From Phoronis australis (Eukaryota; Animalia; Phoronida), in the NCBI GenBank assembly GCA_002633005.1, contig NMRA01000069.1:298422-362421 (forward strand): a stretch of DNA of 64,000 nucleotides, written 5' to 3'. Below are positions 10,201 to 64,000 of this stretch, one piece after another. The notes under the pieces were generated by a model. The model was given only the letters and a program-made list of their open reading frames with translations, searched no databases and was not told the DNA's origin. A program made the position numbers and the translations under genes. How positions within the stretch are numbered: position 1 is the stretch's first letter; each line of letters begins with the position of its first letter.

Positions 10201-11137
10201 GGGGCGCACTGCTACAATGTACTTCCGCCTTTTTATTTTTTTGCGCTGATGGCGCATAGGCACTGTCCAGGAATATTCCTGGTCCTTTTAGTAAAAGTTT
10301 ACGCTAGTAAAATTAGTCTTTTTAAAATATGCCCTACCCTATTAGGATTCCATTTGCATTACCAATTTAAATCACTGGTAATGTGTACAGGAACCATTTT
10401 CAAATTCACAATTTAGGGCTGGCCAACCCCAATAAGCTCTGAACCGTTTTCTTGAGCGGCTGGTGGGTTCAATGCTTTTAATTGTAATGGAGATAGAATC
10501 TTGTCATGGCAAAGATTATTATGAGACCAATTTCATGAGGAAAAAGGCCTAATTCGAATTCCGTTTTTAGCCACCTAAACTGGGTGATGTGTTGTTCAGC
10601 AAAGAGTTTTTGTATTTGATAAAAGTGTACAATAAAATCATCCAGCTGCAAAAGGGATTTCGACTTTTAAACAATGCGTTGCCAATAGTTTCACCACCAA
10701 TCTAGTGTGTATGGAAACAAAAGGATTTTTTGGATGCCTGCAGTATGAAAATTGATTTAAAATTACTTTCCTTGATGCACATCCCTCCAAAATTCCCGTA
10801 CTTCGGTTGACTTCACATATTCCTTGTCATGGAGAGATATGTGACAGAGATTCTCAAAGAAATTCATACCATAACTCAACTGGTAGACCAGTGTCCAGTG
10901 TAGGTACATGCGGGTCAACTTCCTTGTCACTTCGTTTATTTTAATTCTTGTGGTTGTGTGGGGGTGCCTTACTGCGGAGTTCATTAACCTACGCAGCTCC
11001 CTAGCATTGAGGCTCATGTCAGTCTATAACTTCCGTTTGATGATTTTGTTTGCATAATGTTGTACTGTCTAAAATATTATTGAATTGGCCATTTCCAGAA
11101 CCCAAATTCTGTTGTCAAGGTTGCACATGTTGGCAAA

Positions 11138-11309
11138 ATGAGTGAGACAGAGCAACAGAGTGACGCGAGTTTTGCACCTCCTTTCGAGGGAGACTCTCTC
11201 AGCAAGGAGTCTCCCAACCACCAACAAGATGTCTCGGAAATCACATGTCTCAAAGAGAATGGGTTAAACGAAGAAACAACAGAAAAGGTCAACGGTGCCT
11301 GCAACGAGG
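11138..11309 (+). CDS. FKBP8: FKBP8 coding exon 1 (acidic N-terminus)
   Basis: Acceptor ttccag|11099, ATG 11138 (MSETEQQSD...), donor G|GTACGT phase 1. The frame is also open from 11099, so the start could lie upstream. Confidence 0.7.
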
Positions 11310-17300: not shown

Positions 17301-20300
17301 GCTTTAAACGCTTGATGGATGTGTTGAAAAATCTTGCCACTAGGTGGTGTATGTCAGCTTTTTCTCAAAATAAGAGCCAAATCATTTAAATATTATATGA
17401 ATCTATCCGGTCACAACCAACGTTGAACTGATAATTGCAGGTTATGAGGAAGGGCAAAGGTCAGCACACATGTCCATTCAGCGGATGTGTTGTCACGGCC
17501 AAGGTCGAAGGTCGTCTAGAGGACGGGGTAGTGGTGGACCACGACAATGAACTGAAGTTTACAGTCGGTGACGGTGACGTCATTCAAGGTAACCGTTACT
17601 GAATAGACAACATAATATTGACTTTAAGATAGAAAAGGCTGTTTGAGGGTTGGTAGTCATTAATAAGATATTGTTGAGTCAACTTTTTACTTCAAAATAT
17701 ACTTGCAGTAAGCATCTAGTACTTTTATTGCATTCTTTCTTTTATAGCCTGTCATACATTTTATTCAAAAATCGGTTTCAGCTCTCGAACTTTCTGTTCC
17801 ACTCATGGAGGCTGATGAGATAGCTGAAGTCTACACAGACGCAAGATTTGCCTATGGGGAGATTGGCAGGTGAGACAAGATATGTTTTGACTAGTCCTTC
17901 CAGTTTGCGTTATTTTGTCTCCGTTGGTTTATACCTAAGGTGTTACGTGCTGTGTAGACTGTTGATAATTATTGCCATTTCCATGAGTCTACAGTTTTTC
18001 CTGACTCGCTCTTTCCACCACGAAAGTGTACTAAGCTTTGGAGCATTTTTTTACATGTTTACTTGACGTATGTATTTACATAGATTCTGCGTATGGTCAG
18101 TGCTGAACATAAACGTGGTGGTAAAATAAAACAGATTTTCGCACAACTCTTGTATGATTTTCAGTGTGAATCGTGAATAAATGAAGCATTGACTTATGTC
18201 TTCTTATATTGCCGGGTTTATGACGCCAGCAGTAAGTGTTGGTCTGATGCATATATTTTCTGCATTTGTCAAAAATGGCATGGCAATGATTGTGCATGGC
18301 CCTGTGAGTGTTGATCCAACATAGTTAGGTTTTCACATCGTCTGTTGTTATCTTTAAACTTTCGTCATAAATAGAAATTAGCAGACGTCTTAAATATGCT
18401 CAAAAGTGTTGTTGGGCTCTTCAGTGCTATTCATTTATTAATTGTTTTAACCAGTTATCTGTTGTCTTCCTTCTAGAGAGAGTTATATGGGAAAAGTATG
18501 AGATTGTCTTGAATTTTCATGCCAATTACACTGCACGCCAAAAGTAATAAAACATAATTCCCCAGAACTCTCTGCAGCAGCGAAAATCCTGCAGTAATGA
18601 GGTCTTCTTCCTTACTCATTTTCACGGCAATAGTCCGATATAAAGTCAGTGGCGGACCTAGGATACCATAAGGGGGGGCCCAACATGTTGCCTCGAAGAA
18701 TTGGGCAAATCGTATACACACGCGCCCCGAAAGTTGCGGGGGGTAGCGTTGTGACCACTGGTGTTCCCAAATCCATTGGAGGACTAAAAAAACCGCGACA
18801 TGATTCCGCCGCGCCCGGTCGTGAGCCCCCCCTTCGTCCGCTCCCGTTCCTAGTTAGTGTACTCCATATTTCCTCACGCTGTTGTTGTTTAATTTTGCTT
18901 CCGCCAGCCAAGGAGGGGGGACCCGTTCCCCCTGGGCCCCCGTCCCCCCCCCTAAATCCGCCTATGAACGTGCCCGTATTTTGAGAACCAGTTTGATGCC
19001 CAGTATTCAGTGGAGAAAATTCACGTCTGGTTCTCAAAGTTCGGGCACATTGTATCCGGAATTACCATTCACAATAGGGATACAGTAGCTTTGTGCTTTG
19101 TATCCATTGCGCCATTTAGATATAAATATTCATTGTGCCTCTGTCTATTTTCAGAGAGCCAGACATTCCAAAAGACAGCAGTGTTACTTACACTATTGAA
19201 CTGCTGAACATAGATAACCCTGTGGACATAACCAAGTTGAGTGCAACTGAAAAATTTACATTGGGGTAAGTCAATGACAGTGGCATTGTGCAGTCAAGAG
19301 GAGGGCTTAAGTTTTGTGGTTGGGGTTGTAATTTTTGAAGTTCCTGACGTTGACCCAGTGGCACTTAAAGCTGTTATGGTCCTGAAAACGACAACTTTCT
19401 TCATAGGCTAGTAACATGTTCGCTTTCTGAAATCAGGATTCAACATTAACGACTGTCCAATTGTCTGCGACAGCCAAAAATTAGGTATAGACAAGTTGAA
19501 TTTCTAACCTGTTGTCCAAACGGACAATCAAAAACATTTTCATAGTCGTGCACTCGGGTCACTCTCGTCTTGAATGGACGCGCAAACAAAGTACTTTCTG
19601 TAACCTCTCTGCAAGGTAAACTAACCTTCCATGTCAAGCAAGTTATTAAGTTAACAGGTTGCCTTTGTTACCAGTGACCAATATAAAAAGTCTTCAAGTA
19701 TTAAGGTTGTGCAGGACCATAGGAACATGACCAAATTTGGCTTTCTTCGCAGCATTGTATCTTAAAGTGACTGATCTGATTGATATGAAAGTTTCAGATT
19801 GTGTGAATTAGACAGAGTTCTCCAAATCTCTGTTTGGAGCTGTTTCTAAAGCGTCCCACTTTCACATGAGGCTATAAGAAATAGGACTTGTGTGAAGCAA
19901 TAATGATCAGTCAGTTTGTCTCTAAAGGCTATCAGAAATAGGTCTTGTCTGAAGCAATGACGACCAGTCAGGTCGTCTCAACTCTTGAAATCATTTCTAA
20001 TCCGAGATAGGTTCAATACGAGATCAATTTTACATGAGGAAGTGGTCAGCAGTTGTTTTTTGACTGAGGCGTCTTGCTTATTAGCTCTCTGGTAGTGTCA
20101 AAGCCTGTTCGTTTGTGGTAACTGGTATTTTGGGTTCACTCAGCGTGCATGTACATCACAAAATTGGTGTTACGTGTATCTTTAACATTCTTCAGAAACC
20201 TTTTGGGTGATTTTTACATTACGAAAAGTAATGCTAACGTGTCATTTGAAAGTTGTCATTTACATCCACACATAAAAAGTTGATTTGTGTTAGTTTTGGA

Positions 20301-23300
20301 TTACTATCTGGTTGTACACGTTGAAAACTCATAAAAAATGTCTGGCTTAGTCATTTTCCTGTTATCTGTTGTTTCCAGCGACCAGAAACGAGAGCGTGGT
20401 AACTATCTGTACTCCAGGGCCGAGTTTTCAGGTGCAATAAACAGTTACAGGAAGTAAGTGTCACAGGCCTACGTTGGTAGTTGGAGTGCGCCGCATTTGA
20501 CCGTTTTGGTTGTCCTGATTTGTAGTAACTTGCCTTATTCACAGATGTCGTAAGGAATCTGAACAGTGCGACTGTGTTGGTTTCATTTCACTGGCCAACA
20601 GAATGCGTAATTGGTCTGTGCCCGACTCATTTCAAAACCTGCACCTCAAAGCTGCCACCAGGTGGCAATGGGTAAAAACAAAACAAAGAAGATCTCAACA
20701 TTTGACTTGGTTTAGGCGACTTCATTTTTGAAAATGCGAACTGCATCAATCAGAAAAGAACACCAGAAGCAATAATTTTGCTATTTGTTGGGTTTAGTCA
20801 AGATTGAGTGCATTGTTCAATGCTGTTAAATATTGTTTAATATTGTTCAATATTCATTTACTTTACCCTGGCTTCCAGAGCCTTGACCATTTTAGAGGAT
20901 GACACCACCAACAGTGAAGCTGATCCCTCCCAGTTGCAGCTCTTGATTGACACGCGTGTCAAGTGTTACGGCAACCTGGCCGCCTCCCAGCTCAAGGTGA
21001 CTGTTGACAATGACACCCTCTGGTGGAGGTAGTCAGAACTAACTAAGGGCCAGAACAACAGTTGTCATCTGTTTTTGTTTGCTTTTCATGTGCTGATGAT
21101 TCTGTTCATGACGTCAAACATTGAACTTGTTCTTAGTCTGCCAAGTAAAACAAGGATTTTTTGATTTTGCCCTATTTGTTTGCTATGCTCTATGGGATGC
21201 GTTGTTGCAGGTTTTTGTAATTGATATATTAATGAGGTAATGAATTGTCACAACAAATCTGTTGTCATGCATTGTGTGTTTTTAGTAAAGTGTGTCGTTA
21301 CCTCTCTTTGAACAATCTGATTTTTGCATTGTGCTGTGTAGGGACGTGACAAAAAATGCAGCACATTAAAGATGAGTATATGGTGAAAATAGCAGAGTGG
21401 ATTCCCTTTGACATGGTGACATTCTGTGCCAAAACTCATTTGCCAGAAATTCTGTGACATTTTGAGAATTCTGTGACAAAATGATAGAAATTTGCTGACT
21501 CTAGTCGGCCGTTAACGTTTTGTCAAGTTTACAGAAATTTTATGCGGCATCAAGTGGTGGTTCCTTTTTTTCACAAATTGTAAAATTTATGGAATTCATC
21601 ATTATCACTGATATAACGTGTCTTGCATATATGACAAAAGCTAAATTTTTGTGTCACATACATGCAAAAAGTACTAAAAAGCTATTACAGTTGAAGTTTC
21701 CTTGTGACATTTTGAAAATTTTGAGATGTGACAAATTGAGACTTCCCAGTAAATGTAAATCAATGAAATAGCTCTGGGTCATGAATTTATGCCATCAGCG
21801 CTTAAGTAATATAAGAATGCTTTGACTTGAAAACTTTCAATTTACGCTCAACTCGATCGGATTTGGCTGACAAATTAGTTTAGACATCTAGTTTGTATTA
21901 ATTGATACGCAAAAAAGATTAATAGTAAATTAATCTTTTAGAACTGTTTGTCCTCAGATTGAAGCCTACGATGCAGCCATCAAGTCATGTGACTGCGTGC
22001 TCAACATCCACCCACAGAACATCAAAGCCTTGTTCAGGAAAGGGAAGGTGAGTGCTGCTCTTGTTCAATGGTTGTTTTTCAGTTGTTTTGCACAAAAATA
22101 ATTGCCTTAGTTGTTTTTTCCAATTTTCAATGGCAGACTTGAATGTTAAATTCATTTAATGACAGCTGTGCAGTGCAAACTGTGTTAATACCCCTGTTGA
22201 ATTTTCTTAAAGCGGCACTTCCATCACAAAATTAAATTTGATTTAGATGACTTGCGCAAATGAAATTGGTCTCAAATATTGTTACTTAGTGAAGTTTAAG
22301 ATGACTTCGGGCTTGGAAAGGACTGACGGTTTGTTATTGATTGAGAAACAGCTTTAGAAATTAGCTTGTCATGGTGTGTCAGGGCCTGAGAGAATGAACA
22401 AACTTTCGGGTCTCTGCAAGCCGGGAAATCACTTTCCATCTGAGTGAGGAACGAGACAGGTTACACTAATTCTATATTGAGTCTTTGACAAGTGGTCTAA
22501 ATCAAATTTAGGTTCTTTGATGCTACCTGTGTTTATAGCCGCTTGAGTGCTCATTTTTGTTGAGACATTTGACAATGTAAAATTACATGTTTCCAGCACA
22601 TCGTGTGCCAGAGGAATTAATGTAACTTAAGCTGTCGTCATTAGAGTTGTAGGATTAATTTTATTTTCGATATCCCTGGGGTTTGCTTGGAATAATTCAA
22701 CCAATGGAAATTTTTGTTTCGTCATTCACCTGTAACTGTAATCGGGAAATCCCCTCGTTGATGTACCAATATTTACCTGATAAATCTGATTAAAATGTTT
22801 CTTTCAGTTTGATTACGTACCTTGTACTTTACTTTTGTGTTTAATTGCGAAAATAAACATCTGTAAGCTTTGCAAAGTATACGGTTCTGTGCTAAAGCAT
22901 CGTGGTCATTTAGATTTGCAGTTTGTGTGTATCTGGTGACAAGGTGAATTTTCATTTTCTCCAGTCTCTCGCTGCGAAAGGCGAAGTGTCTGGTGCCATT
23001 ACTTTGCTAAGGAAAGCGCTTGGCTTTGAGCCTGAATCAAAGGTACGGTACATTGGAATTTGATTGTCATTGAAGATTTAGGGTTCCATATAATGAGGAT
23101 AAACGTCTTTGTTTTTGTATAAAATGACCCAGAATTCCCCGTCATGGCAGCTGGGCAGAAACTGAATTTATCATCAGAGTTAACTTCCCTCGTGACTGAG
23201 AATGACTGGGAATTAACAGAAAAAGTAGTTAGGTGGCCATAAGTCATTCTGTAGTAAGAATCTTGCTGTGATAATTTGCAGTTGCCTTTTTTCTCTAGGA

Positions 23301-26300
23301 AACGTACTCTATACGTGTAACTTTTCACGGATGGCGTGTGTTCAGTGTTAATGGTAATTTCATGAAAGTGTTGAACTGGAATGTATTGCAAATTTCTACT
23401 GCACTGTTGCCAGATACTACACGTCGAGTTGGCAAAGTTGGTCAACAGGATGAAGAAAGAAGAACAGAAGACTAGAGCCATGTACAGGAAGATGTTGGGA
23501 ACTGACAACATTGATGGACCCATCTATAAACCTAACGATCAGACACGGGTAGGTTGGGGGAAGGGTGACTATGATGTTGTAAGATATTTGTATAAACAGG
23601 GAGACTGACAACATTGTTGGTGTGTTGTATAAACTCGAGTGTCAGACTTGGGTAGGTTGGGGAAGGGGTACAACGGTGTTGTAAGACATGTGTATAAACA
23701 GTGAGACTGACAACATTGTTGGTCCTGCATGCTCACCCAGTGATCAAATAAGGTATGTCGGGAACAAGGCAGCTGTGGCTGATACGGAGAGAGGGGGCGA
23801 CGTAAGCTGCTTAAAAATTCGGGGTAATGTGTGAGTAAGGGTTAGCAGTACAATAACTCTTTAGAGAGACTTTGTATGTGACAACATTTTGTTGATAATG
23901 TTGTACAGAATGTACTGCTGAAAATGGGAGGATTTAGAATGGGCTAGTTCTAGAAATGGACACAAGGGGGGTGAGCGCTAAGTGTTCGTTGATTGTGCAA
24001 TTTTTGTCTTTATGAATACGAATGAGTGTAATTATAGTAAGTTGATAAATGAGTATGAACAAATGAGTATGAACAAATGAGTATGAACAAATGCGTATGA
24101 ACAAATGAGTATGAACAAATGCGTTGCATGTCACCATGTTCTCAACACTCAATCGGCCCGTTTTGTAGGTTAAAATACTTTCTATGTCATTTTTCAAATT
24201 GCTTTTATTGATTTTTGCAAATTTGGATATCTAAATTTGCAGAAAAGAAAATACGGTTGTCTGAAACAGGTGGGAGTGGACTGCGTTTGGTTAAAATGAT
24301 TTGTTCTTTGGATACTGCCTCACTTTAGGTCCATGTTCCAAGTTTAATGGAAATAAACTGAGTACTGTTGCCTCCTAGTCTTTGTGGAGTAGTCCCTTGG
24401 TACTAGCATATACTGGTTTATGACTAGTTGCCACTACGTTGAACCTCTGGATCCCAGTTTATTTGTATTGTTGAATGATTCAATTCTTCATAATCTCGAA
24501 AATTCAATACATTCGAAGACTAGTAAACATCTTGTGCGTGGTCATAGTTCTGACAGAGCGGTTTAATACTTGCTGTTCAAGCAAGAAGGGTATGGTCTGA
24601 CGATAAAGTTTCAAAAAGTTCCCAAAGTCCTACATTGGGGGGTCACGTTTTTAGGTGGCTACTGGAGGGAGCGCAAATTTTGTTGGTGAAAGATGCTTTG
24701 ATTTGGGTAACTGTTTCCAAACCCCAAAGTGTGCCTCTATTCAAAATCGGGTCAATGGCTCACTGGAGCTGTGAATATGTATGGTTGTAATTGGTGTGTT
24801 CTTGGGTGGGAGGGCACCAAAGTGGATGATTGACAGCTGACACATTAATCCGTATTGCAAATTAGTTTTCAGAGAAATTAATTCTAGAAGCAATTGCATC
24901 CGATCGTTGTTTAATTCTATCACCCAAACATGGTACATGGTCCTCAAAGTGGTTATGCCTGTTTAAATTTTTTATTTGTTTTTTTTTTCTTCTGAAATCT
25001 GCATTTCCCCTTGTTTGCCTGGCTAAAATAACAAAAATCGTCCTTTTACTCTCATGATGTCAGTCTGAATATTCCTTATCGTCGTAGGATACCATTTCCA
25101 TTACCAGTTCAAGTTACAGTCAGTGCTTACTTATTTAGTACATTCGGCATTTTCAAATTCGTAATTTTAGGGTTCACCAACCCCAATAAACTCTTGATGG
25201 TCTCAATGAGAGTGACAGGGATCATTTGATTTTCGCTTTTAGTCAGCTAAATGAGGCAAATGCACCTTCAGTTGTCTTTATATACGTGCATTTTCTTTAT
25301 CTATTCACTAGACATAGCGTATTTAATGACATGTCATCATATTGATTTGCATCGTTACGTAATGGACCTTGGTTGTAGACACAGCTCTTTATTAGAATTA
25401 GATTGCATGGTTTATTGTGTCTTCGCTCATTTAGTTTATGACTGACTACCCCTTGCAACCAGCAAAAAGACACGACTGAACTTCAAAATGTGTGGACCGC
25501 GAGTACAGTTTTAATTTGAAGCGGTCTGGTCATGGGTTTTACTTGTAGTGGTCAGTCATTTAATCGTGGATTAAATCTGGCACTGTGCTCCTTATTCAAT
25601 GTGGCATTGCCTATTCCTTGTTCGTGTCGAGCCCATCACTCTTGTGTTTTGTAGAAATCAGAATGACATGAGTAGCACCCTGCTGTGTGTTTTGCTCCAT
25701 GCATCTCAACAATTTCTGATGAGTAGAAGGAAACCACCATGATAACCCTCTCATGTTGGCACATTCCCCAGTTGGTTTTTCACTTGACTGGCAAAATTCC
25801 ACTCTACAGTTGTTGTAATTTGCACCCACGGCTCTTTCGACTAAACGGATTTCACGTTGCCCGGATAAAATTTCTCTGTCCGGTTGAATTCGACTTGTAC
25901 TAGTTTCACTGTATCTGTTTTTCAAACTCAGCTGAAGATTTTTAAATATGGCTTTGAGCCTCATTTAAAAACCTCATGGGAATATCTCATTAATGAAAGG
26001 ATCTAGAGGCCACTGTAGTCTGAGGGTGAACACAGCTTATGGACTGCGGTGCTTATTTCCCAGCAGTGGAAGAATTCCATGATGTTAAACTGTCATGAGA
26101 CACTTGTCGCTTGGAATCCTGATTTGTTGGAATGCAAAAGATTTTGTTTTCTGTCATAGTTCAAGTTTCTGGCTTGACTTTTACGTCAGTTCTGAGATGT
26201 TCATTTTGCACATGTATATCTGTGAAGTTGAAACACTTGATGCGTATGAACTCGTCTCTCATCACCAAGAACAACTTTTGATTTAGACTGCTTACTGTTA

Positions 26301-39500: not shown

Positions 39501-42500
39501 GCCACAGACAGAGCCACAATTCACAAACTTGAAATTCTTTGACAAAGACAAGACAGTACGAACACTGACTGGAAATAATGCTTGTGTGAAGATGTTTGCT
39601 TGAAACTTACAGACATGGCCATACAGCCTTGTGGAAGGGGAGAATTCAGTGTTTTCCACAGTAAAAATGGCAAACTCGAGGGAAAATGTCATTTGACTGT
39701 ACATCAGATGGGATGTCCAAGATACAGTAAAGTAAACATTTTCATAAATTTGGACAAGGGGCAATTCATGTTTTCAAGTATGTACACCAAGATTGGCGTT
39801 TCAAAAGACTTGTTTTTCAGTGACACTTGCAAACAGGACAGTTGTCTTATTTTAGCCACTAGGTGTCACCATAAGATAATTTAACTCAAAAATTCTAGAT
39901 ATTATGTAAAAGCTATACAGCTGTCTCAAAAAGTTTTGTTAATGAAAGAATTTTCAGACCATGGAGAACATTGAATGAAAGTGATGCGGCCTTTTTGTTT
40001 AGCTGGTCCAGGGCTCGACATAACGAGCTGCAGGATGCATTTGAGACCCGAAATTTGAAATGCGAGCTGAGATTTTGGCCAACTCACAGTAGTCAGACTT
40101 AGGCAAGACGAATTTTCATGCCAAAGGCCAATTACATCTAAGTGCACTGATGTGAAACTTTTAATAACCCTAGAACCAATGACATAATTGGCGTACCAAT
40201 TGTCAGCTAAAGGCGACCACTGAATTAAATGGACAATTGTCTTCTACTCAGGAAACTTGAATAGCTCACTTGCGAGTTTCTCGCTAGTCACTCTGACGTC
40301 ACCGGAAAGGGGGCAAAACCCGCCATATTGCTCTTGTTTTGCCCCGAGTCTTTGCTACACACGAAAAAACTTACTGGAGTTCTTATGGTGAATTTAACGC
40401 TTAAAACGTTAAAACAACTTAAGATATGGTAGATGGGTCGTGGAATAACTGTGATTAGACGAAGAAAATGTGACCTTGTCATGTAGTGCGAAGCTGTGAA
40501 CGGACTGAAATTGGAACTTAACCCGCTCTAGGCCTGAATGGCGCAGGCATACAGGGGCGATAGTGTATCCCCATAAAAAGATATTCACTTCAAAATACAG
40601 CAAATGAAATCAAATGAAACATGCATGTGTGCACATGAAGTTATAATTAACACATACCCTGACTCTGGACACAATTTAGTCTACAAATAACTTTAGCATA
40701 TTCATGAAAACCTCGCGGTTCTCTCGAGTTTCTCTCACTACAGAGCCGCCATTTTGAAGAAGTTACGTGAAATCACGCCTGTTGACGAACAAAAAGTCCA
40801 AGGGACACAAATCTTACAAATTTCACTTGATATTTTCTCATGCTATTTTGCAAGTGTCACGCGCCAGGTCACGCGCCAGATCTCGCGCTTCGCTCAGTCT
40901 CGCGCTAGCCTTTGCCTCGCCTTACTCAGTTGAACTACTTGATTGTGGTAATCGCGCGCGCGGACAAAGTTAACAGTAACCACAAAGTGGAGTTGGAATT
41001 CTTCGCCTAAGTCACCTGAATTCCCGTATATATGCTTCATCGAAGATATACTTAGAAGCAGAAAGAGTCACTGAAGAAAGTAAGAGCCTTTTAGGTGCTA
41101 ATTTTAGGTGTAGAATGTATTTTCGACGAGGTGAAAACTTTACCAGTGAGCGGATTTCGCCTACCGCCCGTTTAAAATACACGGGACGTAATTAGTACAG
41201 AACGCGATAGAACGTATTGTAGTGCGAATCTGAAGTTCATTTGCCATAACAGCAATGCTTTTGGACATTTTTCGAACTAAACGGCTAAAAACTCAAAGAC
41301 AATAACAGAATACACTCTGCTACCGTATTGGGCAAATGACCAAACGACAAGCTTTTGCCCCACTTCCCGTGACGTCAAAGTTAAGTCTCACATAATCTCG
41401 CGTTATTGTTATAAACTCGCAAAAGGCCTATTTCCATCTGCCTAATGTCTGTCAAGAAAATTGCGAGCTGGGGATTTTAGCCAGGTAGCTAACAACGACC
41501 TAGTGATTTGCATATCATCAATGACTGTGTTTGTAATATTTTTAACAGGTTGCAAGCCATTCAAATGTGTCACAAGGGCAGGCTAACAGGTGCAACCGAC
41601 ACATTATAACAGGTTTAGGAAGACACTGCAGATGCCCCCTTTCTTCAGAATCATGAAAACTTCCAGCAAATAAAAAATTAAAAATCCATCATTCGGTCCC
41701 TAACTGAAAAATATGCTTACGTTCATAGGTATAGCACCAAGTACGAAAATTTTGCTTTCACTTAAGATTATGTCAATCAACAAGTTTTCTGACACACAAT
41801 TTGCCTTAACTTCCCAACCGTAACACTAATGAATGAACAATACCAACCGTCATGTAACGGTCCAATAACGGTCTTGGCCATGAACCCCCTTTCCCCACAC
41901 AACAAAATTAATAACGAAGGGTATGCAAGCTTTTGATGTTACCCTCAGTAAAACGACACAGATAAGTGCCAATGTTGGAGAGATATTTATCTGAGTTCCA
42001 AAGAAATAATTATAAGATGATCAGCGACATATTAAACTTTTTAAAAATTTTGTTGTTACTTAAATGCCAACTGAGCATCAAAACTGCAAATGTCTGACAC
42101 GTTTTGTCAGTAGCAAATTAGTTTCATTGGTCACCAATTCCTCAGAGATTTATCTCATAGTTCCGTGCTTTCAAAAGCTTAAGGAAATTATGGTAACATA
42201 GACAGATTCAAAACACCTTGAATGACTCCGAGACTATTTCGAGAGGAAAATTTTCGAAAATTTTGCAAATATAACAGGTGCAAGGCCCTACAAGGAAATC
42301 GAAAACTTCCGAGTGTATTTTAAGACTTTTTGGAAACGCCCTCGACAGCGTTACATGCAAATTGCTCACCCAAAGTTTTCTTGCACAGAAACACAAAAAC
42401 ACAGCGTTAGGCTAACAAGCACATAAGAAGCAGAACATCTTAATTACCTTTCCATTAAAACCTTGATCAAGTAACAGTAACTTTAGCAGCATCCTCTCTT

Positions 42501-45500
42501 TTTTCATTTCCTCTTCCTGTCTCTTCTTCCTCTCCTCCTTTTTTCTTTGCACCGGATGACTCGGATCAGGTCGGTACGTTTTGTAGTTATCTGGTGACGT
42601 AAGTCCAAACACAGTGCAGAGGTGTTTCTTGTAATAGTAGCCCTTCTCCTCTAGGCCGGCGATCGGTGCAATGTGGAAGGGTATCTCCTGTAAATCTTTC
42701 TTCACCGTCGGGTAGTACGGGATGAAGAGATTTTTATACTGCGTGTCCATCAAACACTTGTACAGTGCAGCATAATTTGCTTGTTTGAACATCTCGCCCC
42801 CGTAACGATTGAATAACCTCATGGTCTGACACAGCTTCTGTGACATGTAGAGCAGATAGACAGTGCTGTGCTTAAAGGCATATTCATACGTCTCCAGATC
42901 ATGTTTGAAAGCAGGACATATACTCACATCATCATACATACACCCAACCAGTCCATAAGTTCCCAGCTTCTCATGCAACCTTTCTGCACCTACTCTATCC
43001 TCCTCAATGAAAATCAGAGTGTAATCATATTCTGTTGGACTATGTGCCTCGATCACTCCATTTGGTGGCTGGGAATACACAGCTACAATGGAACAGTCAG
43101 AACGTGATTGACAATCATGGTTCCAGCAAGGCTTTAGCATATAAGAAATGCTGCCTAAAAATGCAACTGCAGAACAAAAGTGAAGTACATGAAAAATGAA
43201 ATAACTCGAGCAAACGGTGCGAGGCCCTCGACCTAAATGTGTAACTGCGATAAATATTCACTTGTTTGGAATAATCTCTAAAATTTGGAACACTGACATT
43301 CAAGTCGAAATTGCACTTATTGATGCTGACGATGAGGAAATGGGCAAATTTTTCATTCATCATGTTCCTTAAATTTGGGAGACTGCATTTTGCATCAACT
43401 GAATTTGAAAACTCTAACCAACACTCAGCAACTTCTAAAATCTTCCAATAAGGCCGCTGACACGTTGGCACGTGTTCCCATAGAATGTAATGTCGAGGTA
43501 AATATTTTCCAACCATGCCGGGATCTTCTCAAAATTCGGATAGTGCATATGGCTTCAAACGTTATAGTTTTAAGATCACAATATTATTTGCGAAAATAGA
43601 ATTCACATTTACGTCGCTTAGTTTTGTAAATTTGCAACTGGTGGCAAAAGCGTAGTTAGTGTGTTGTTCTAAGACAAAAATCACCCTAATTTTGGTTTAA
43701 AACCGAAAACCGACTTCGGGGTTATGAAACGAAACAATCTTGTCTGAATTTTTGTCTGTCTTAACAGAGCCGGAATTTCGGTCTTAACAAATATCATGAA
43801 AAGGGCCCCTGGGCTTGAACTCAAATCAGCCATTAGGACAGGCACTCATCCCCATTCTTGTTAAAGCCATGTTCAGCTTAATGCCCAAACCAATTTTGAG
43901 ATCTCAAAGTGAAGGCCTGGGGCATTAACATTGATGAATACCGTTAGGTGGTTTTAACCAAAAAGAAAAATTGCACATTCTCACAACTCATATGACTATC
44001 ACGTGGGAACAAAACAAGATTTTGGGATTGTCAGAAAAAAATTATTAAAATTCCCAAAAGGGGGAGTTCGGAACAAAAAGCGTAGTTGGTTCTAGTCCGC
44101 GGCCCACACAAATGTAGGCTAGTGACCTTATGACGCGGGCATAACCACCTGATCAATGTTCATCAACGACCCATTACGTTGCACACATTAATACTGCCAG
44201 CACTCACCCTACAAGCAAAACAAAGCATTGAAATGTGCTCACGACTGCATCGTAAACTGTATGCTTCTAGGAGTGTTGATCAGTATCACAAAAAAAAGGC
44301 TCTGTCGATTCCCTAACAGGAATCAATTTGCCAAATTTCATCAAATTTCCCTCAGGAACTTTAAAGATGTGGGGGAAATGAAAATACAATTTCCAGTACA
44401 AGGTACAACAGTAGTGGGATACATCTGACTGAAGTTGGTCATTGTTCTTACCTTCATAGGAATACACTTGGCAAAATTTCACAAAGTTCCCGATGGACGT
44501 TTAGGAGATATAGCGGGTGGAAAAAAATGGCATTAGGGGGGACCACAGTATTCAGGGCCGTTCGAAAATCAACGTCAGTCGCGTTGTCAAAAGCAAAACA
44601 AAAATATCTGACTGGCAATTTTCTTGATCTTCTGAGAATTTAGGCAGAGGTTAACGCCAAGAATAGAGACACAAAAATATTACACAAATGGCCACTAGGT
44701 GGCACACTCTATGTCAAATCTAACCGAAATTAAAAAGGGGATGTATTCTAAATAGAAACCTATCATGCAATCCTGTCACAGAACAATGAAGAAACAGAGG
44801 TTAACAAAAAATAATAAATTGCCACTAGGGGGCATACCAGAACTTAGTCAGATGCATCCAAACCAACCCTGCCTTTTGACATCACAGTTTTCCATGATTA
44901 CACAGCGTATGGGNACTCACACTACTGTCACTGTGATACGGGTCACCGACTCCAGCCATTTTCAGCTTACAACACTCTAAACAATCCCTAAATCCAACGT
45001 AGTTGAGTTCTCTACTAACCTATCTTGCCGCAGAATACTCGCCGATAGAAAGTGGTGGCGACAATTGTTGAAAAACAGCACAAAACAAAAGTAGAATAGA
45101 ACAGATTTGCACGGTAAAGTCAACGCAAAACCAAGTGGCAGGAAACGCTTGCCTCCTAAAACGTCACTTCCGGAGTAGCAGACGAGTGTTTAATAAAATT
45201 ACGAAAAGCTGTAATTAAATGGAAAATATGTCTAGGATAACCAACCAACCTTATTTTAGCTCAAACTGGCATGCAAAAAGGTTGCCTTCGCCTTTAAAGA
45301 TGTGGGGGAAATGAAAATACAATTTCCACTACAAGGTACAACTGTAGTGGGATACATCTGACTGAAGTTGGTCATTGTTCTTACCTTCATAGGAATACAC
45401 TTGGCAAAATTTCACAAAGTTCCCGATGGAGGTTTAGGAGATATAGCGGGTGGAAAAAAATGGCATTAGTGGGGACCACAGTATTCAGGGCCGTTCGAAA

Positions 45501-46074
45501 ATCAATGTCAGTCGCGTTGTCAAAGGCAAAACAAAAACATCTGACTGGCAATTTTCTTGATCTTCTGAGAATTTAGGCAGAAGTTAACGCCAAGAATACA
45601 GACACAAAAATATTACACAAATGGCCACTACGTGGCACACTCTATGTCAAATCTCAACCGAAATTAAAAAGAGGGTGTATTCTAAATAGAAACCTATCAT
45701 GCAATTCTGTCACAGAACAATGAAGATACAAAGGTTAACAAAAAATAATAAATTGCCACTAGGGGGCATACCAGAACTTAGTCAGATGCATCCAAACCAA
45801 CCCTGCCTTTTGACGTCACAGTTTTCCATGATTACACAGCGTATGGGATGGTGGCAACATGGGACATTTTGCAGAGTTGAACTATGTTAACATTTTCTTC
45901 CATCTCAGTGTACTAGTATATTAACTCCTAGGCTGTATTTTGGCATGGTAAACAACCTCAATCTGTCTGGTTTTATATTTTGAGCAACGTTTTGACCCTA
46001 AATCCCTAGTCTAATTGCTCACTTTCTCTTCTGGCGTCAACTTCTAAATCCTCATCAGGCAAACAGGCAGACAT
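33351..46074 (-). CDS. TICAM/TRIF-like TIR-domain adaptor with C-terminal RHIM-like motif, 6 coding exons, 400 aa
   Basis: Exons (minus) 46074-46023, 43082-42448, 39183-39102, 37883-37755, 33951-33842, 33545-33351. All are GT-AG with intron phases 1,0,1,1,0, giving 1203 nt. An in-frame TAA lies 3 codons before the ATG. The TIR (YDYTLIF..ED...A..L.EKL...G..G, AFKHSTVYLLYMS, FIPYYP, IAGLEEKG.YY) follows the TICAM pattern (YNFVILH..AD...A..V.EKL, AIDHSAFIILLLT, VIPFLP, LVRLDEHS..F). Confidence 0.8.
33842..33951 (-). CDS. TICAM-like coding exon 5
   Basis: tttctag|(G)GDEGSGRPRAQNVQQPVEQTGLKTSFPVTESMDPEK|gttgtt; phase 1 to 0. Confidence 0.72.
34610..34801. mobile_element. MITE (ATTGACCTAT...ATAGGTCAAT); inverted second copy at 46583-46776
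   Basis: TIRs and shared internal gtcaagaatg.tgcgttctgattggtca; contains the gap 34630-34654. Confidence 0.7.
35790..36295. repeat. Foldback built from ~21-bp subunits (gacttcaaaacca / tggttttgaagtc)
   Basis: The left arm 35790-36000 is the imperfect reverse complement of 36120-36295. Confidence 0.6.
37755..37883 (-). CDS. TICAM-like coding exon 4
   Basis: ttattacag|(A)SRQSMLGASADLEEDAADTHGHTGPPLADMDPRGAADGSDHP|gtatgt; GC-rich island, phase 1 to 1. Confidence 0.78.
39102..39183 (-). CDS. TICAM-like coding exon 3
   Basis: tttttatttaaag|DHAPVQAVGVTPHPNEEATHSFKFEEK|gttaac; phase 0 to 1, weak donor. Confidence 0.68.
40261..41431. mobile_element. Non-autonomous DNA transposon in TICAM-like intron 2
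   Basis: Ends atagctcacttgcgagttt and aaactcgcaaaaggcctat, with subterminal inverted tgacgtcac.ggaa..ggggcaaaa; CpG-rich interior. Confidence 0.55.
42448..43082 (-). CDS. TICAM-like coding exon 2: TIR domain and charged helix
   Basis: Lies within ORF 42412..43140; acceptor ccattgtag|, donor AAG|GTAATT; clear paralogue at 63137-63756. Confidence 0.9.
44359..45847. repeat. ~555-bp near-identical direct duplication (44359-44913 / 45292-45847) joined at an N
   Basis: The copies are near-identical; n at 44914; the unique spacer ends ...CCTTCGCCT|TTAA. Confidence 0.85.
46023..46074 (-). CDS. TICAM-like coding exon 1 (MSACLPDEDLEVDARRE)
   Basis: Strong acceptor ttgtttttgtttttag| at 46198, upstream in-frame stop, and donor A|GTGAGC in phase 1 matching the TIR exon. 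Confidence 0.68.
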
Positions 46075-48103: not shown

Positions 48104-48854
48104 TAGACAGTAAGCCTTGTCTCTAGTGAACTACAGACGGTGAAGCTCCTATAGACGCTTCCTACACCAGAAGCTTTTCGGCAAATGATACGTCACACTG
48201 ATCAAAAGTCACGTTGTCATGAGTACCTTTTGCACATAGAGAAACACCTTAGGAAGCCGTCAATGTCTTTAATTCCTTCCAACTCGAACAAATACTTCCG
48301 TTATCAAACTTTTTCTTGGAACAGTCATTCGTTCAGTTCCCCAAATCGGCAACTGACCATTTTTATTATTGCGCGCGGCAGTTGGTATGACGTCATATCC
48401 CCTGACGTACACTGTGTAAAAATGGCCAGTTTCCTATTTTGGGAACTGAACGACAGACGGCTCCAAGAAAAAGTTTGATAAAAAATCTCGAGTATTTGTT
48501 CGAGTTGGAAGGAATTAAAGAAATCAACGGCCTCCTAAGGCTTCCCTCTTTGCGCAAAAGGCACTTGGAACAACATGACTTTGATGTATTAATCAGTGCG
48601 AGGCATAATTGGCCAAAAAGGCTGTGGCGTATGAAGCTCCTACAGTAGACAGTGGTAGGATATAGTGGTCCCTGATTTAGAGAACCAGGCAATCAGTGAA
48701 TAATGGGTTCGTTATTTAGTGGATGAAACTGGTTCTCTAAATCAGGGACCGCTATATCCGACCAGTGCCTAGACAGTGACCATCGTCCCACTGGCACCGA
48801 CTGTAGGAGAGTCATCATCTCTACTAGCCAGCTACAGAAGGTGGTCACTGTCTA
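48104..48854. mobile_element. TAG...CTA foldback element (same family as 33-961) with nested 126-bp TAG...CTA MITE at 48646-48771
   Basis: Termini TAGACAGT and ACTGTCTA; degenerate 9-bp TSD GATACAGTG (48095-48103) vs GATGCAGTT (48855-48863). The inner MITE has ~40-bp TIRs (ggtccctgatttagagaaccag). Confidence 0.75.
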
Positions 48855-50920
48855 GATGCAGTTGTATTCTTTAAATCCTTCCAGTTCAAACACTTTCACA
48901 ATCCATGCATATTTCTAAATAGTACTTCACTCAGTCAACGAAATTGAAGACTGAGCTCCATTACAGTCAGTGTGTTCAAGGTGAAAGGAAAACATAACGA
49001 GGATTATGGGGAGGTCAGCCATCAGCCAGTCACACCAAGAGGCAGCACCATCAATGGGGGACTTGTCTATTCTTCATACAGCTAGCTGTTTGGTTAAGCT
49101 CAGGGATATACCTAGGTTTCAAAACCCTGCTCGCCAGCTGGGCGAGTGAGGCAGAAAATCTACTCGCCCAGCCTGAAGTTCAGTCGCCCAGCCGTTTGCG
49201 TCACTTGCTGCCAATGTCAATAAAAATCATCGTTTCGTGTGTTGATGTCACCATCTATTAGGGCTAGTATCGTTTTTAGAAAATAAACTCCTACCAAGCA
49301 ACTTTTGACGTCGATGAATTCCAAGCAACACAAGACGTTGCCTTGGCGAAAAAGCTGCCGTGTAGTAATATAGGCTACATCTATGGCGCCAAGGTGGGTA
49401 AAAGACTGACCTGATAAAATCTGACATAAAAGTAGTTTTATTAAAAACTGCACTCTTCCTCACTCCTGACACCAAAATGGAAGCGCCCAACCAAAAGCAA
49501 CAGTGGAAGAAATCAACTAGTCATTAAGTGCAAGTCAAACATTCTGTTCACATCCGCGTGGTCAAAAACTTATTCTTTGAACTTTTGATTTGCCTGGTGA
49601 CTTTTTACATGATGTATGTTTGCTTCATTATTTTGGCAGCTGACCAAGCGCCCCTATGCGTAATAGTAATATCGTCCAATTGCTGAGCACGTGCTTTGAA
49701 CAAGCGCGGTTTTGGCTTTGAACCAAAAAAGAAATATAAAATGTTAAATTGTTCAAACTAAGTTTGAACAAAACAGTTAGAAAATCTGTCAATCATTAGC
49801 ACGTGTTCGGTTGCCTAGGTGTCCAGCGGAAGCAAATCTCTACAAAATCAAGTGCTCCCCTAAAAGTACAACACGAACTAGCGGAATCTTGCTCGATGTG
49901 TTTTTTCTCTCAAGAAAGTTGCCCTACTGAACGCACGCCTACGTACCTGTATGAATACCTTAGTTCCAAGAAATGACGAAGAGCCACCGAGGTACGTAAA
50001 AACCCAATCCCGCTCGGGATCACGACATCACTGTATCATGCTACGGGCCATCGGAAGTCCGTTACTTCAATCCCCCAACCTATCTTTTGACTGATATGCT
50101 TGAAGTCCGACGTCAGTGTAGCTCTGTGACGGTAAACTCGGTCCTCCGTGCAGTAAGGAACAACTCAAGACTTTTCAAAAATTTCAATTTTAACCGCCCA
50201 GCCTGTTTTTTAGATTCTCAATTTCACTTGCTGTGACCACATAGACTGGTCTTGCACCTTTCCCCCTTTTTCTTCGATTCGGACTAGTCCACGAATTCCT
50301 TTGTGCACGACCAACCACTGTGATTTCTTGTCTACATGAATCACGTAAGGGGTGACAGTCTACTGAATCGGTAGGAGCGCACTTTGCCGATGATTTTTTT
50401 ACTGCCGGAGCATCGACTTGCTGACCAAACTGAACCTTTGTTATCATGATAAAAACAGCACAAGGAGGAGAAAATTTGTTCATGTTTACCTGGGAAACGC
50501 TAAAGTCTTCTTGCGCTATGAAAATTCGCTCACCACCTGGGCAAGCGGAAAGACAATTTCCACTCGCTCAGCATCATTTTCACACACATTGGCGACTGGA
50601 CGAGTGGCTAAGTATATCCCTGAAGCTATGTGACCTAGAGCCCACAACCTATTGACATTTGTCTGTAATTATGTATCCAAGAAGAATTATTAATGGCAGA
50701 TTGGTACCAAAACAAACATCAAATTCTACAGGCATTCTACTTTCACAAATATTTACTGAGTCTGCTTTGTAGATATTTGGCTAAATATACAGACAACTTG
50801 ACAAGGTCCCAACATCAACCAGTTGTTAGCAATATAACATACAGCGATTCCTACTAACTCAGTACTACTGTACTATACTACTGCTGTACGTGAACTTGGA
50901 ATCTTGCTTAATCTCAAGAT

Positions 50921-51448
50921 TGTTGTAGATGTGCTTCCGGTGAATTATATGAGCCTCTGTTAGCTACTCGCTAACGGGCAATTGCCTATTAGCTGAATGG
51001 TTAGCACGCTTGCCGGTTTTGTGGGGGTCGCTGGTTCGATCCCCGGGTCGGGTAATCTCGGCTATTACTACAAATGACCTAGTCGGAAAACGGATGATCT
51101 ACCGATGAAGCACTGCCAACTTAAGTACCCACAGACCTCGGGACGGCGCGCATGGAAGGTTCCAGGAGTCAAGGACCTGTATGAGAGACTACCTTGTGTT
51201 CACCTGTGTGTTGTGGTGGTAAAGTTACCAAGGGACATTGATGACCTGTATGCGAGACATCCTGGTCGCGTGCCCGTTCCATACGGAAGGGGGGAATGTT
51301 GTAGATTTGCTTCCGGTGAATTATATGAGCCTCTGTTAGCTACTCGCTAACGGGCAATTGCCTATTAGCTGAATGGTTAGCACGCTTGCCGGTTTTATGG
51401 GGGTAGCTGGTTCGATCCCCAGGTCGGGTAATCTCGGCTATTACTATG
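50921..51448 (+). mobile_element. Miniature non-autonomous LTR retroelement (TRIM) with tRNA-like sequence inside both LTRs
   Basis: 152-bp direct repeats 50921-51072 (TGT...ACA) and 51297-51448, differing at 6 positions. PBS-like TGACCTAGTCGG at 51075-51086; PPT GGAAGGGGGGAA at 51285-51296 abuts LTR2. Each LTR has an A box (TAGCTGAATGG) and a B box (GGTTCGATCC). Confidence 0.85.
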
Positions 51449-52134
51449 TTGTAATCGTCAACATCATTCGTCCTTTATCTTTCTGTGGTGTCTTGTGATT
51501 TGTCAGTTTTATGGTTCCCCGGATGCTTGTTTTACTTAAACTGCTGGCGGGAATCCTGCTGGCAGTCTTTCAGCAAGCAATGAGGATGTCAGGGATGGGC
51601 ACCTGGATTGGGTTTTACCTGAAGCTTGAATAGCTGTGTTTTAACTGGTGAGTACTTCTAGAGGCCTAGCTAGTGAACCTGCAGTAATACAACAACTACA
51701 AGATTAAGCGGAAGTGTTGCGCGAACTTGGAATACCCTAGGCAACTTGACAAGTTCACTCAAATAATCACGTTCATGTTCATAAAAATCAAGTTTCATTT
51801 GAATAAAACAATGTCAATTTCAACCAACCTTTTCAACTACGGAGTACGGGCGATCAGTTTCACCAAACAATAATCGATTTATTTTAGCCATTCACATATT
51901 CCTCCGGTTCAGTGACACAAGTTACGGTAAAGGAGAAAATAGTTGATCACATGGCCAATAATTACAAAAATTCTTTTCACCGAACAAAAATGTCACCTTT
52001 TTGTCTTAACGAATATTCAATTCTAAGTTCACGCAACACTCACTTTCGCTAAGTTGAGATTAAGCAGGATTCCAAGTAATCCAAGTTCACGCACAGCACT
52101 ACTACTTCTTCGTAATTCATCGGACGATACTTAC

Positions 52135-52245
52135 ACGGCTGTGTTAGCAACGAAAATGATTGTGCAGTTAAATGTATTCCCAGCGTCTGACTTCATGTGA
52201 ATAATTTCGGCTATTGGTTATTTCCAGTCGTGGGTTTTCCCCCCA
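52135..52245 (-). promoter_or_regulatory. Candidate promoter/first exon of the TICAM-like gene (kB-like GGGAAAACCC, CCAAT, donor |GTAAGT)
   Basis: On the minus strand: GGGAAAACCC 52241-52232, CCAAT 52217-52213, donor GT at 52134. A possible second UTR exon lies at 51678-51619 (ctgcag| ... CAG|GTAAAA). Confidence 0.3.
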
Positions 52246-53047
52246 CCACTAAGAAGTTTTCCTAGAAGTAGAACTCGATTATGGCGTACCTGATTATTGA
52301 CTGAGCCTCAAGAGGGCGCTGATCGTTTTGGCATGACGACCAGCGTCATCTTGAGGCTTGGGGACGAGTCTGTCCCTGCTCAGGTATCACCGTTAGTAGT
52401 TCTTCGGCAGTGTGTCTTACTCATAGGCGGATTTAGGGGGTGGGACCCAGAGAGCCCGCCCCCCCCCCTTGGTTTCCGCAAAAAATAAAACAGCAAGAGC
52501 GTAGGGAAATGTTGAGTTTATTAATTAACCCCGGTAATAAACATTATACGGCTGAAACAAGATTTAAATGTGTGCAGTTTTAGTGTGTTTGGGGGGGGCT
52601 CAGATCCAATTTCAAGTGTCAAATTCGGAACACGGCGCAATCGTAACGGAGCTATGGCTAAGTGTAGGCTCTCCCGCGATATCCGGACGACCGGCAATGG
52701 CGCTGCGCACTACGAAAATGGAATCTGAGTGACGATGAACAAACAGAAGCTCAGTGCTGGTAAGAAGTGAATTTTAATCCAAGTCTCAGTGAATCACCGG
52801 TCGTGACTCCGAAACTCATAGTTCTCTCTTTGTCAAACCTTAACTTAAGACGATTTTCAAAGCAATCGCGTCATTAATGCCAACACAAAAAACGGATTTG
52901 GTCTTTTGGGCAATTGAAGACTATATATCAAATTTGTTATGAACTGATTGCACAAAATATAAAAAGTGTACTAACCATTACAAAAAAGTAGGTTTCGCGC
53001 GCAAACGCTGAGGACTATAAACAAGTAGGTCTCTTAGAATCAAAGTA

Positions 53048-63136: not shown

Positions 63137-63724
63137 TTAACTAATTATCTTCTGAGGATAAAGAGCTACCTTCTGTTGCCTTTCTTCCTTTGCTTTTTCA
63201 TATCTTTCCAATCGTTCCCACTTCTTCTTAGGAATTGGGTGGTCCTCGTTGATTCGGAATGTTTTATTATTATCGTGTGGTTGCAAGCCAAATACTTTAC
63301 ACATATGCTTTTCGTAGTAGGGACCCTTCGCTTCCAGGCCAGCGATCGCATCAATGAAGACGGGCATATTCTCCACATCCGCCTTCGTATTTGGGTAGTA
63401 CGGGATGAAGAGGTTTTTATAGTTCTCGTCTTTCAAGCACTTGTACAGGGTCGCGTTGCTTACGTGATCCAATTTACGGTCTTTGCGCAAATCTTGACAC
63501 ATAGTTTGGGACATCTACAGGAGATAAACAGTGCTATGCTCGAACGCATACTGATACACCTGCATCTCCCCTGTTACCGACGAACGCATAATACTAGGGT
63601 CGTTATATAAACATCCCACCAGTCCATAACTTGTTAGCTGTCTGTGCAGATCCATGGCACCGTTTGTATCAGCGTCGGCGAAAATCAGCGTGTAGTCATA
63701 CTCCTGGGGTTCACTCTGTGACAT
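63137..63724 (-). pseudogene. TICAM-like TIR-only paralogue with one in-frame TAG (nonsense allele, pseudogene or base error)
   Basis: ORFs 63515..63967 and 63137..63514 are the same frame split by TAG at 63517-63515, where the paralogue has TAC (HSTVYLL*MSQ vs HSTVYLLYMSQ). Acceptor ctttccctttctag| at 63756; candidate ATG at 63724 (MSQSEPQEYDYTLIF). Confidence 0.8.
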
Positions 63725-64000
63725 TTGTGACGCACTGCTTGAGGTTGGAACTTGTCCTAGAAAGGGAAAGAAAAGAGTTAAGATGGATAATATAATGCAA
63801 GTGCCATTTACACACAGACTTGTCCTAGAACAAGTTACTCCTTGAACGAGTTGCCGCTTGATTTGAAGCCTGGGCTGAGTGGAGGTGTACATTAAAACTT
63901 GTGCAACTTGCCGCACTTGGGACACCTTTCTCCACCTTATCGATCGGTTCACTGTCGTCCTTTGCACCCGCCTTACCGATCGGAGGTTATTGTGTGTGTG

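Follow-up and report, generated by a model that had tools for sequence, protein, structure and literature searches.

The repeat that begins at position 50921 of the window (the whole 64,000-nt stretch of Phoronis australis DNA analyzed here) is best read as a gene-less Helenus copy, i.e. a TRIM that would be transcribed by Pol III, primed by tRNA-Ser, and dependent on a Gypsy-type helper; from its sequence features, a probability of ca. 0.85 was assigned to this reading. Helenus comprises TRIMs whose LTRs hold a tRNA-like stretch and which also possess a primer-binding site (PBS) plus a polypurine tract (PPT) (Kojima 2024, PMC10886601). In the available portions of that paper, sizes of 311-1263 bp are given for the group, its animal members (TRIMp3) have 4-bp TSDs and Gypsy-like PBSs, Helenus is suggested to have arisen several times, and the means by which TRIMs keep their dependence on a helper is described as not known. 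Helenus is also cited in a 2026 sugar-beet paper (PMC13570524).

The TRIM spans 50921-51700 on the forward strand and measures 528 bp once a nested insert is subtracted. Its 5' LTR (50921-51072) is 152 bp long with TG...CA ends, and loose ends with mixed flanks were found at both of its limits. The 3' LTR (51297-51700) is split, running from 51297 to 51446 and ending in the CA at 51699-51700. The direct repeats are spaced 376 bp apart in the window. Over the 150 bases in which they are in register, the LTRs differ at four positions (two transitions and two transversions; 4/152 sites, K2P 0.027); thus, the two 152-bp LTRs of the preliminary description stand, but its count of six differences does not. 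That description also had LTR2 ending in TG and saw no clean TSD. Both points had to be revised: the TG at 51447-51448 opens the nested 248-bp element, the true CA lies beyond it, and AGAT at 50917-50920 (left) and 51701-51704 (right) forms a clean 4-bp TSD. The chance of meeting those exact ten letters (the second ACTA of the nested element, the CA, and the AGAT) at a given place is 1.7e-6. The 4-bp TSD of the TRIM was observed at one of one locus, the window copy.

Between the LTRs lies a 224-bp core (51073-51296) without a recognizable gene; its longest ATG frame is 64 aa, and a Pfam search of its 90-aa open frame gave no match at E 0.05. A 16-bp direct repeat occurs in the core at 51174 and 51243. 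The PBS, of tRNA-Ser type (51075-51088), matches at 11 of 14 positions in the window copy, and a PPT of 12 purines (51285-51296) abuts LTR2. The 5' LTR contains a small hairpin (50959-50975), into which the left arm of the fold-back treated below could pair instead, and a degenerate tRNA-like unit (50983-51053; second copy in LTR2 at 51359-51429) with box A at 50990-51000, a T4 run at 51017-51020, and box B at 51033-51042. The TRIM has no simple-repeat tail. The non-coding core, the short direct repeat, the PPT touching LTR2, the hairpin, and the A and B boxes at tRNA spacing (32 nt apart) had all been recognized in the preliminary description and were found again here, as was its PBS-like 12-mer with 10 of 12 positions matching tRNA-Ser (51075-51086).

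The nested element (51447-51694) is 248 bp long, has the ends TGTTGTA...TACAACA, and is flanked by the 4-bp duplication ACTA (51443-51446 and 51695-51698). It was inserted two bases short of the end of LTR2 and 17 bases beyond the tRNA-like unit. It belongs to a separate repeat family, matched at other loci by contigs covering 51446-51673, 51477-51694, and 51481-51693. Because of its TG...CA ends, 7-base terminal inverted repeat, and 4-bp duplication, a solo LTR is its most likely identity. A Ginger-type DNA element was judged less likely: elements of that type have TGT ends, a 4-bp TSD, and longer TIRs, and the inverted ends here extend over just 7-10 bases. The nested element opens with the first seven bases of the TRIM LTR and likewise makes a 4-bp duplication. 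Since these 7-base ends are all that the two have in common (best E 2.2), they do not prove it to be the helper's LTR; membership of the helper family or targeting near Pol III genes may account for it, as judged from this one case.

The TRIM, in turn, interrupts a non-coding, MITE-like repeat with long terminal inverted repeats (50882-52098), which was delimited by its inverted arms and by the joints in other copies. Its left arm occupies 50882-50920 and resumes at 51705-51733, its right arm occupies about 52020-52098, and the portion resumed at 51705 mirrors 52020-52040. In other copies, 50920 is joined straight to 51713-51751, and loose ends with mixed flanks occur before 50881/50882. This TIR-bounded, non-coding host repeat is ca. 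430 bp long minus its inserts and high in copy number. A subterminal motif occurs in it four times, and ACT repeats flank it on both sides. The order of insertion was host TIR repeat, then TRIM, then nested LTR-like element. The locus is a clean three-layer nest, and it shows that a nested element of this kind, most likely a solo LTR, can conceal a TSD. A self-BLAST of the window found no further copy of the TRIM or of the nested element within the 64 kb.

Copies at other loci were examined in four of eight listed sequencing runs, three of them DNA contig sets of one sample (X1, X2, and X3) and one a set guessed to be RNA (X5); the comparison draws on the 40 best-supported among 416 letter differences and on 24 out of 2020 loose-end entries. 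Among the matches listed, at least 49 loose ends with unrelated flanks fall exactly at 50921 in X1, and at least 41 and 45 lie behind 51072 in X2 and X3, respectively, with a flank agreement of 0.36. One 501-nt contig consists of 173 foreign bases followed by LTR, PBS, and core from exactly 50921, and a 3298-nt contig from another locus holds core, PPT, and LTR. The BLAST check for dispersed copies that had been proposed, carried out as this contig comparison, therefore returned LTR and core with LTR boundaries at other loci; neither SINE-like behavior of other copies nor a one-off duplication, the contrary outcome foreseen in the preliminary description, was seen in the contigs. A metagenome scan with a 20-base LTR stretch gave no matches. 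In X1, the summed depth was 73,000-128,000 in four bins wholly within the LTRs, 7,100-21,000 in three core bins, and 13-52 over the flank at 52147-52300; the LTRs are ca. 1000-fold above this unique flank, a ratio of depths that is not a copy number. The excess of LTR depth over core depth only hints at solo LTRs.

The family PBS is better preserved than that of the window copy. At 51077, 51079, and 51087, the tRNA-Ser-complementary letter is carried by 99.0, 94.3, and 99.6% of the X1 depth (48, 35, and 49 contigs, respectively). The majority letters at these three sites therefore bring the match to 14 of 14, which is the state in most other copies, as measured against a human tRNA-Ser template (PMC3299991, seen in part) that may differ from the host's own tRNA-Ser. 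Among the differences listed, the window copy departs from the majority at no fewer than eight core sites and by two indels. Its three PBS mismatches in 14 positions contrast with an LTR divergence of 2.7% (Poisson estimate made by hand, about 0.001), and this excess could be due to LTR gene conversion, a minor subfamily, or an assembly error. Given the three PBS mismatches and the insertion in its right end, the window copy is probably dead.

That the window element is a Helenus TRIM is very probable. Judged by the Helenus criteria, it is shorter than 1000 bp (528 bp minus the nested insert) with two TG...CA LTRs; it codes for no protein (64-aa ATG frame, no Pfam match); a tRNA-like box A (TRGCY..YGG) and box B (GGTTC) are found in each LTR; the PBS lies just past the 5' LTR (11/14 here, 14/14 in the family majority) and the PPT beside the 3' LTR; and it has a 4-bp TSD and belongs to a dispersed, multicopy family. 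All of these sequence-level criteria, the CA end and the TSD included, thus back the earlier suggestion of a tRNA-carrying TRIM of the Helenus kind. An origin by insertion of a SINE, in line with the SINE/LTR hybrid of the preliminary description, may lie behind it, as Kojima's paper also infers. In common with the animal Helenus elements in the available parts of Kojima's data, it has its size, two short LTRs, a tRNA-like unit near the 3' end of the LTR without a functional tRNA, the box A and box B motifs, a PBS, a PPT, and a 4-bp TSD; with most bivalve, all nemertean, and all vertebrate Helenus LTRs listed there, it also shares a hairpin-palindrome-box A layout. By eye, the nearest in layout are Helenus-2/3_PiNo, Helenus-2_MyGa, Helenus-1_BaPl, Helenus-1_LiLo, LTR-11_DR, and LTR2_Lch. 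Unlike the Helenus elements listed, it has LTR and core lengths of 152 and 224 bp, a tRNA-Ser PBS, and a T4 run between the boxes.

The family appears to be a genuine new one within Helenus, as set against Kojima's Table S1 and animal LTR listings (not Repbase or Dfam). The earlier suspicion of an undescribed family agrees with this, as neither its PBS nor its lengths belong to any family in that table and the sequence listings compared. Within the portions available, Table S1 (PMC10886601) has no family with a 152-bp LTR and a 224-bp core; the tRNA-Ser PBS has no occurrence in the supplement, where line breaks could mask one; and Fig. S2 shows two PBSs of Ser type whose sequences differ from it. 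None of the animal LTRs in supplement parts 5-8, compared by eye, resembles the window LTR outside the palindrome module. The fungal families of parts 2-4 and the contents of part 9 (the rest of the wasps, Selaginella, and Fig. S1) lay outside this comparison. With this element, the group described in 2024 would gain a single family and a single primer type, a modest extension.

In the proposed mechanism, Pol III would start slightly upstream of box A in LTR1 and run into LTR2, and the resulting transcript would carry a short repeated end for strand transfer. tRNA-Ser would prime at the PBS, with PPT priming and an integrase-made TSD as in LTR biology (PMC10886601, available in part). The enzymes of a Gypsy-type helper, to which the 4-bp TSD and the priming by a tRNA 3' end point, would copy and insert the TRIM. 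As RNA, a palindrome-centered fold-back might link two genomes into a dimer by way of the LTR2 stem; alternatively, it might pair the 5' end of the transcript with its 3' end.

The palindrome in question is a perfect one of 10 nt (50977-50986, second copy at 51353-51362) that ends four bases before box A, and it is a candidate dimerization/cyclization signal. It is the center of a predicted 61-nt fold-back (50951-51011; 24 pairs, of which 10 are GC, 9 AU, and 5 GU) that would extend over the inferred U3/R junction, bringing together the end of U3 and the 30 bases that open the tRNA-like unit; an identical copy is present in LTR2 (51327-51387). The stem ends 6 nt ahead of the T4 run. The sense strand of the fold-back had a folding z of -3.45, with 0 of 200 shuffles as stable, versus -1.10 and 24 of 200 for the antisense strand. 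Of 1073 GC-matched window stretches, 18 were as stable as the fold-back, and 10-nt perfect palindromes begin at 0.12% of window positions. The core folded no better than shuffles (z of +2.58 and +0.77), and whole predicted transcripts had z-values from -0.17 to -2.13. The 12-mer at 50976 was predicted to form a stronger self-duplex than all 1720 sampled window 12-mers, and the predicted homodimer had an energy of -64.0 kcal/mol vs. -52.8 kcal/mol for two monomers; because any RNA with two palindrome copies is predicted to pair them, these two predictions lend no independent support. Pairing of the 5' and 3' ends was predicted with a probability near 1 for an RNA start at or before 50976 and was lost for a start at 50983.

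The palindrome recurs in other Helenus LTRs. It was tallied by eye, not by computation, in the available portions of Kojima's sequence file, in which related families are not independent of one another. By this tally, it is present in 54 of the 75 LTRs from vertebrates, bivalves, nemerteans, and brachiopods: 33 of 51 in bivalves (one partial), all three in nemerteans, all 18 in vertebrates (one with an ambiguity code; the species are coelacanth, sturgeon, paddlefish, and relatives of carp and catfish), and none of three in brachiopods. It was absent from the one ctenophore LTR and the 30 wasp LTRs compared, and it was not seen by eye in the fungal LTRs of supplement part 1, which were not counted. 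Since 21 of 57 lophotrochozoan LTRs and all of the wasp LTRs compared are without it, the palindrome is not needed by every Helenus element. Where present, it is usually preceded by a hairpin and lies ahead of box A, with its center coinciding with the tRNA +1 boundary. The letters vary and the symmetry is kept, as in GGAGATCTCC (BaPl-1), GAAGTACTTC (MyGa-1), GGGTTAACCC (CGi-1), and GAGCCGGCTC (AcRu-1); ten different central tetramers, all self-complementary, were encountered. Among the even-length palindromes, imperfect pairs were noted by eye in about 17 LTRs, all of them G.U on the sense strand and none A.C. An odd-length form, in which a single base at the center is unpaired, occurs in about a dozen scallop and nemertean LTRs, and a simple hairpin would also explain that form. 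In ArIr-4 and LTR-11_DR, traced by hand, the pairing extends ca. 30 bases each way, as in the window element.

The animal Helenus LTRs in these listings seem to be split between two layouts: in one, the palindrome module is present and the acceptor stem lost; in the other, an acceptor-like stem is kept and the palindrome is lacking. The latter layout was observed in wasps, Lingula, and some oyster families, and one oyster genome has both; several acceptor-stem LTRs have shorter, GC-rich palindromes closer to box A. A term search of Kojima's main text (PMC10886601) gave zero uses of "palindrom", "hairpin", "inverted", and "dimer", and no follow-up paper describing the palindrome was found in a search that lay outside most subscription journals.

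We give roughly even odds to the proposal that the U3/R-junction fold-back works at the RNA level, dimerizing genomes or joining ends. Inside a hairpin, the central four bases cannot pair, and yet they stay self-complementary; this suggests that two strands pair with each other, with the G.U bias indicating the sense RNA. A different and unlikely role for the Helenus fold-back is that it aids Pol III termination at the weak T4 run of LTR2 or shields the 5' end of the tRNA-like unit from tRNA-processing nucleases. U3 would be untranscribed in LTR1, so the hairpin would form in LTR2 only, where its stem finishes 6 nt short of the T4 run; in yeast, RNA structures serve as auxiliary signals for Pol III termination (PMC9278858, available in part); and the palindrome center falls on the tRNA +1 boundary. 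However, neither function requires the central four bases to be self-complementary, and this property is kept across ten tetramers. Moreover, in many Helenus families in the sequence file, the T-run comes after box B, distant from the stem, which disfavors a role in termination.

It is improbable that replication produced the palindrome and fold-back as a by-product (by template switching or by fold-back of an RNA or cDNA end), or that they are a feature of the DNA, with no function as RNA. Template switching can perfect quasi-palindromes, and the palindrome center is near the expected 5' end of the RNA. Such copying, however, yields Watson-Crick symmetry on both strands, whereas 5 of the 24 pairs here are sense-strand G.U, and antisense folding does not exceed that of shuffles.

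Transcription by Pol III from the tRNA-like boxes of LTR1 is likely, judging from the promoter motifs. Box A and box B, 32 nt apart and matching the Helenus motifs, are present in both LTRs; with our own patterns, box A followed by box B within 80 bases was found as two pairs in the 64-kb window, one per LTR. The tRNAscan/Infernal check that had been advised for 50983-51053 was run with ARAGORN and Rfam, and it gave no cloverleaf at normal settings. ARAGORN returned nothing on the LTR units at its default setting or at -ps95, -ps90, and -ps85; at -ps80, both units were found along with one spurious match in the core. Rfam, searched at E up to 10, gave neither a tRNA nor a 5S match (only two chance-level matches were returned). 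A functional tRNA gene was rejected, the cloverleaf being below the standard thresholds of both programs. In each LTR, the T4 run lies between the boxes, 27 nt past the first base of box A, with none after box B, and it should stop some Pol III transcripts early. The core is free of T4 runs, of which about one would be expected there by chance.

The decayed cloverleaf and the T4 run interrupting the tRNA-like unit would also suit an ordinary Pol II TRIM, or one copied from read-through RNA, in whose LTR the tRNA or SINE relic is passive; in the available text of Kojima (2024, PMC10886601), the Pol III function of Helenus is given as not validated. This explanation is very unlikely: both boxes match the Helenus motifs in both LTRs in spite of the degenerate stems, and, of the 416 letter differences between other copies, the 40 best supported all lie outside box A and box B. 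The notion of a locally duplicated tRNA-derived SINE with chance look-alikes of a PBS and PPT, which would suit the single full copy in the 64-kb window, can be dismissed in view of the exact 4-bp TSD, the TG...CA ends, the lack of a simple-repeat tail, and the other loci with both LTR boundaries, core, and a 14/14 PBS. Classification as a tRNA-derived SINE (SINE2) was likewise rejected; the tRNA unit starts ca. 60 nt inside the TG...CA repeat, and the family boundaries are the LTR ends.

Several known systems, each known to us from part of its literature, bear comparison with the window element. Like it, Cassandra and Ajax are non-coding TRIMs, each LTR of which holds a Pol III promoter derived from a small RNA (PMC10886601, PMC7215508). 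They carry 5S rRNA sequence, whereas the window element has tRNA-type boxes and no 5S Rfam match at E up to 10; Ajax has 5-bp TSDs, as opposed to 4-bp. Cassandra transcripts begin within the 5' LTR and stop within the 3' LTR, with an 18-nt repeat (PMC10886601). For RNA pairing, the parallels are Ty3, which dimerizes through a short palindrome (DS/PAL6), and Ty1, which has the palindromes PAL1/PAL2 and the cyclization sequences CYC5/CYC3, its RNA being circularized by long-range 5'-3' pairing (PMC7969010, PMC11381356). Ty1 and Ty3 are autonomous Pol II elements whose experimentally backed palindromes are 5' and partly in gag; in contrast, the palindrome of the window element is in both LTRs at the predicted Pol III start and is known here from sequence and folding prediction. 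The biv-TRIM of bivalves (PMC6934838) is, like the window element, an animal TRIM with short inverted repeats and palindromes; unlike it, biv-TRIM has no canonical PBS and carries its palindromes in the inner domain, and the available text makes no mention of a Pol III promoter.

If compensating changes have preserved the palindrome in zebrafish, scallop, and the present host alike, it would provide a concrete cis-signal. As a common character, it would favor a single origin (or transfer) for most Helenus elements of non-insect animals. In the fullest form of this proposal, which we advance tentatively and with some doubt, the vertebrate, bivalve, nemertean, and window Helenus elements would be one ancient lineage instead of several separate births; their common U3 segment, antisense to the beginning of the tRNA-like unit and centered on a covarying palindrome, would act as a DIS-like signal for dimerization and end pairing that enables dimerization, packaging, and strand transfer of a Pol III RNA in Gypsy particles without LTR homology to the helper.

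Some features elsewhere in the window were also recorded. Exons resembling those of an FKBP8-like peptidyl-prolyl isomerase lie on the forward strand at 14993-23605 (near 15200, 17750, 20340, 20870, 21960, and 23400); in comparisons with proteins, which involved short matches, one exon matched 0 of 60 candidates and another, with FKBP8 proteins as its matches, 7 of 19 (four named, all trematode). Two related TIR/SEFIR-like adaptor frames are found on the reverse strand at 42415-43257 and 63140-64000, with 70% DNA likeness over 196 bases, and the latter appears to be split over two frames. Neither had a Pfam TIR match, and the 281-aa frame at 42415-43257 matched 0 of 253 candidates; for this frame, Atlas gave a TIR/SEFIR lead at 0.87, with Mollusca the commonest taxon. 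A direct duplication of 556 bp (44359-44913 and 45292-45847) is 97% identical. Finally, a repeat family of ca. 250 bp occurs in inverted pairs at 30-964, 2541-2804, and 48146-48771, with a long fold-back at 48146-48648.
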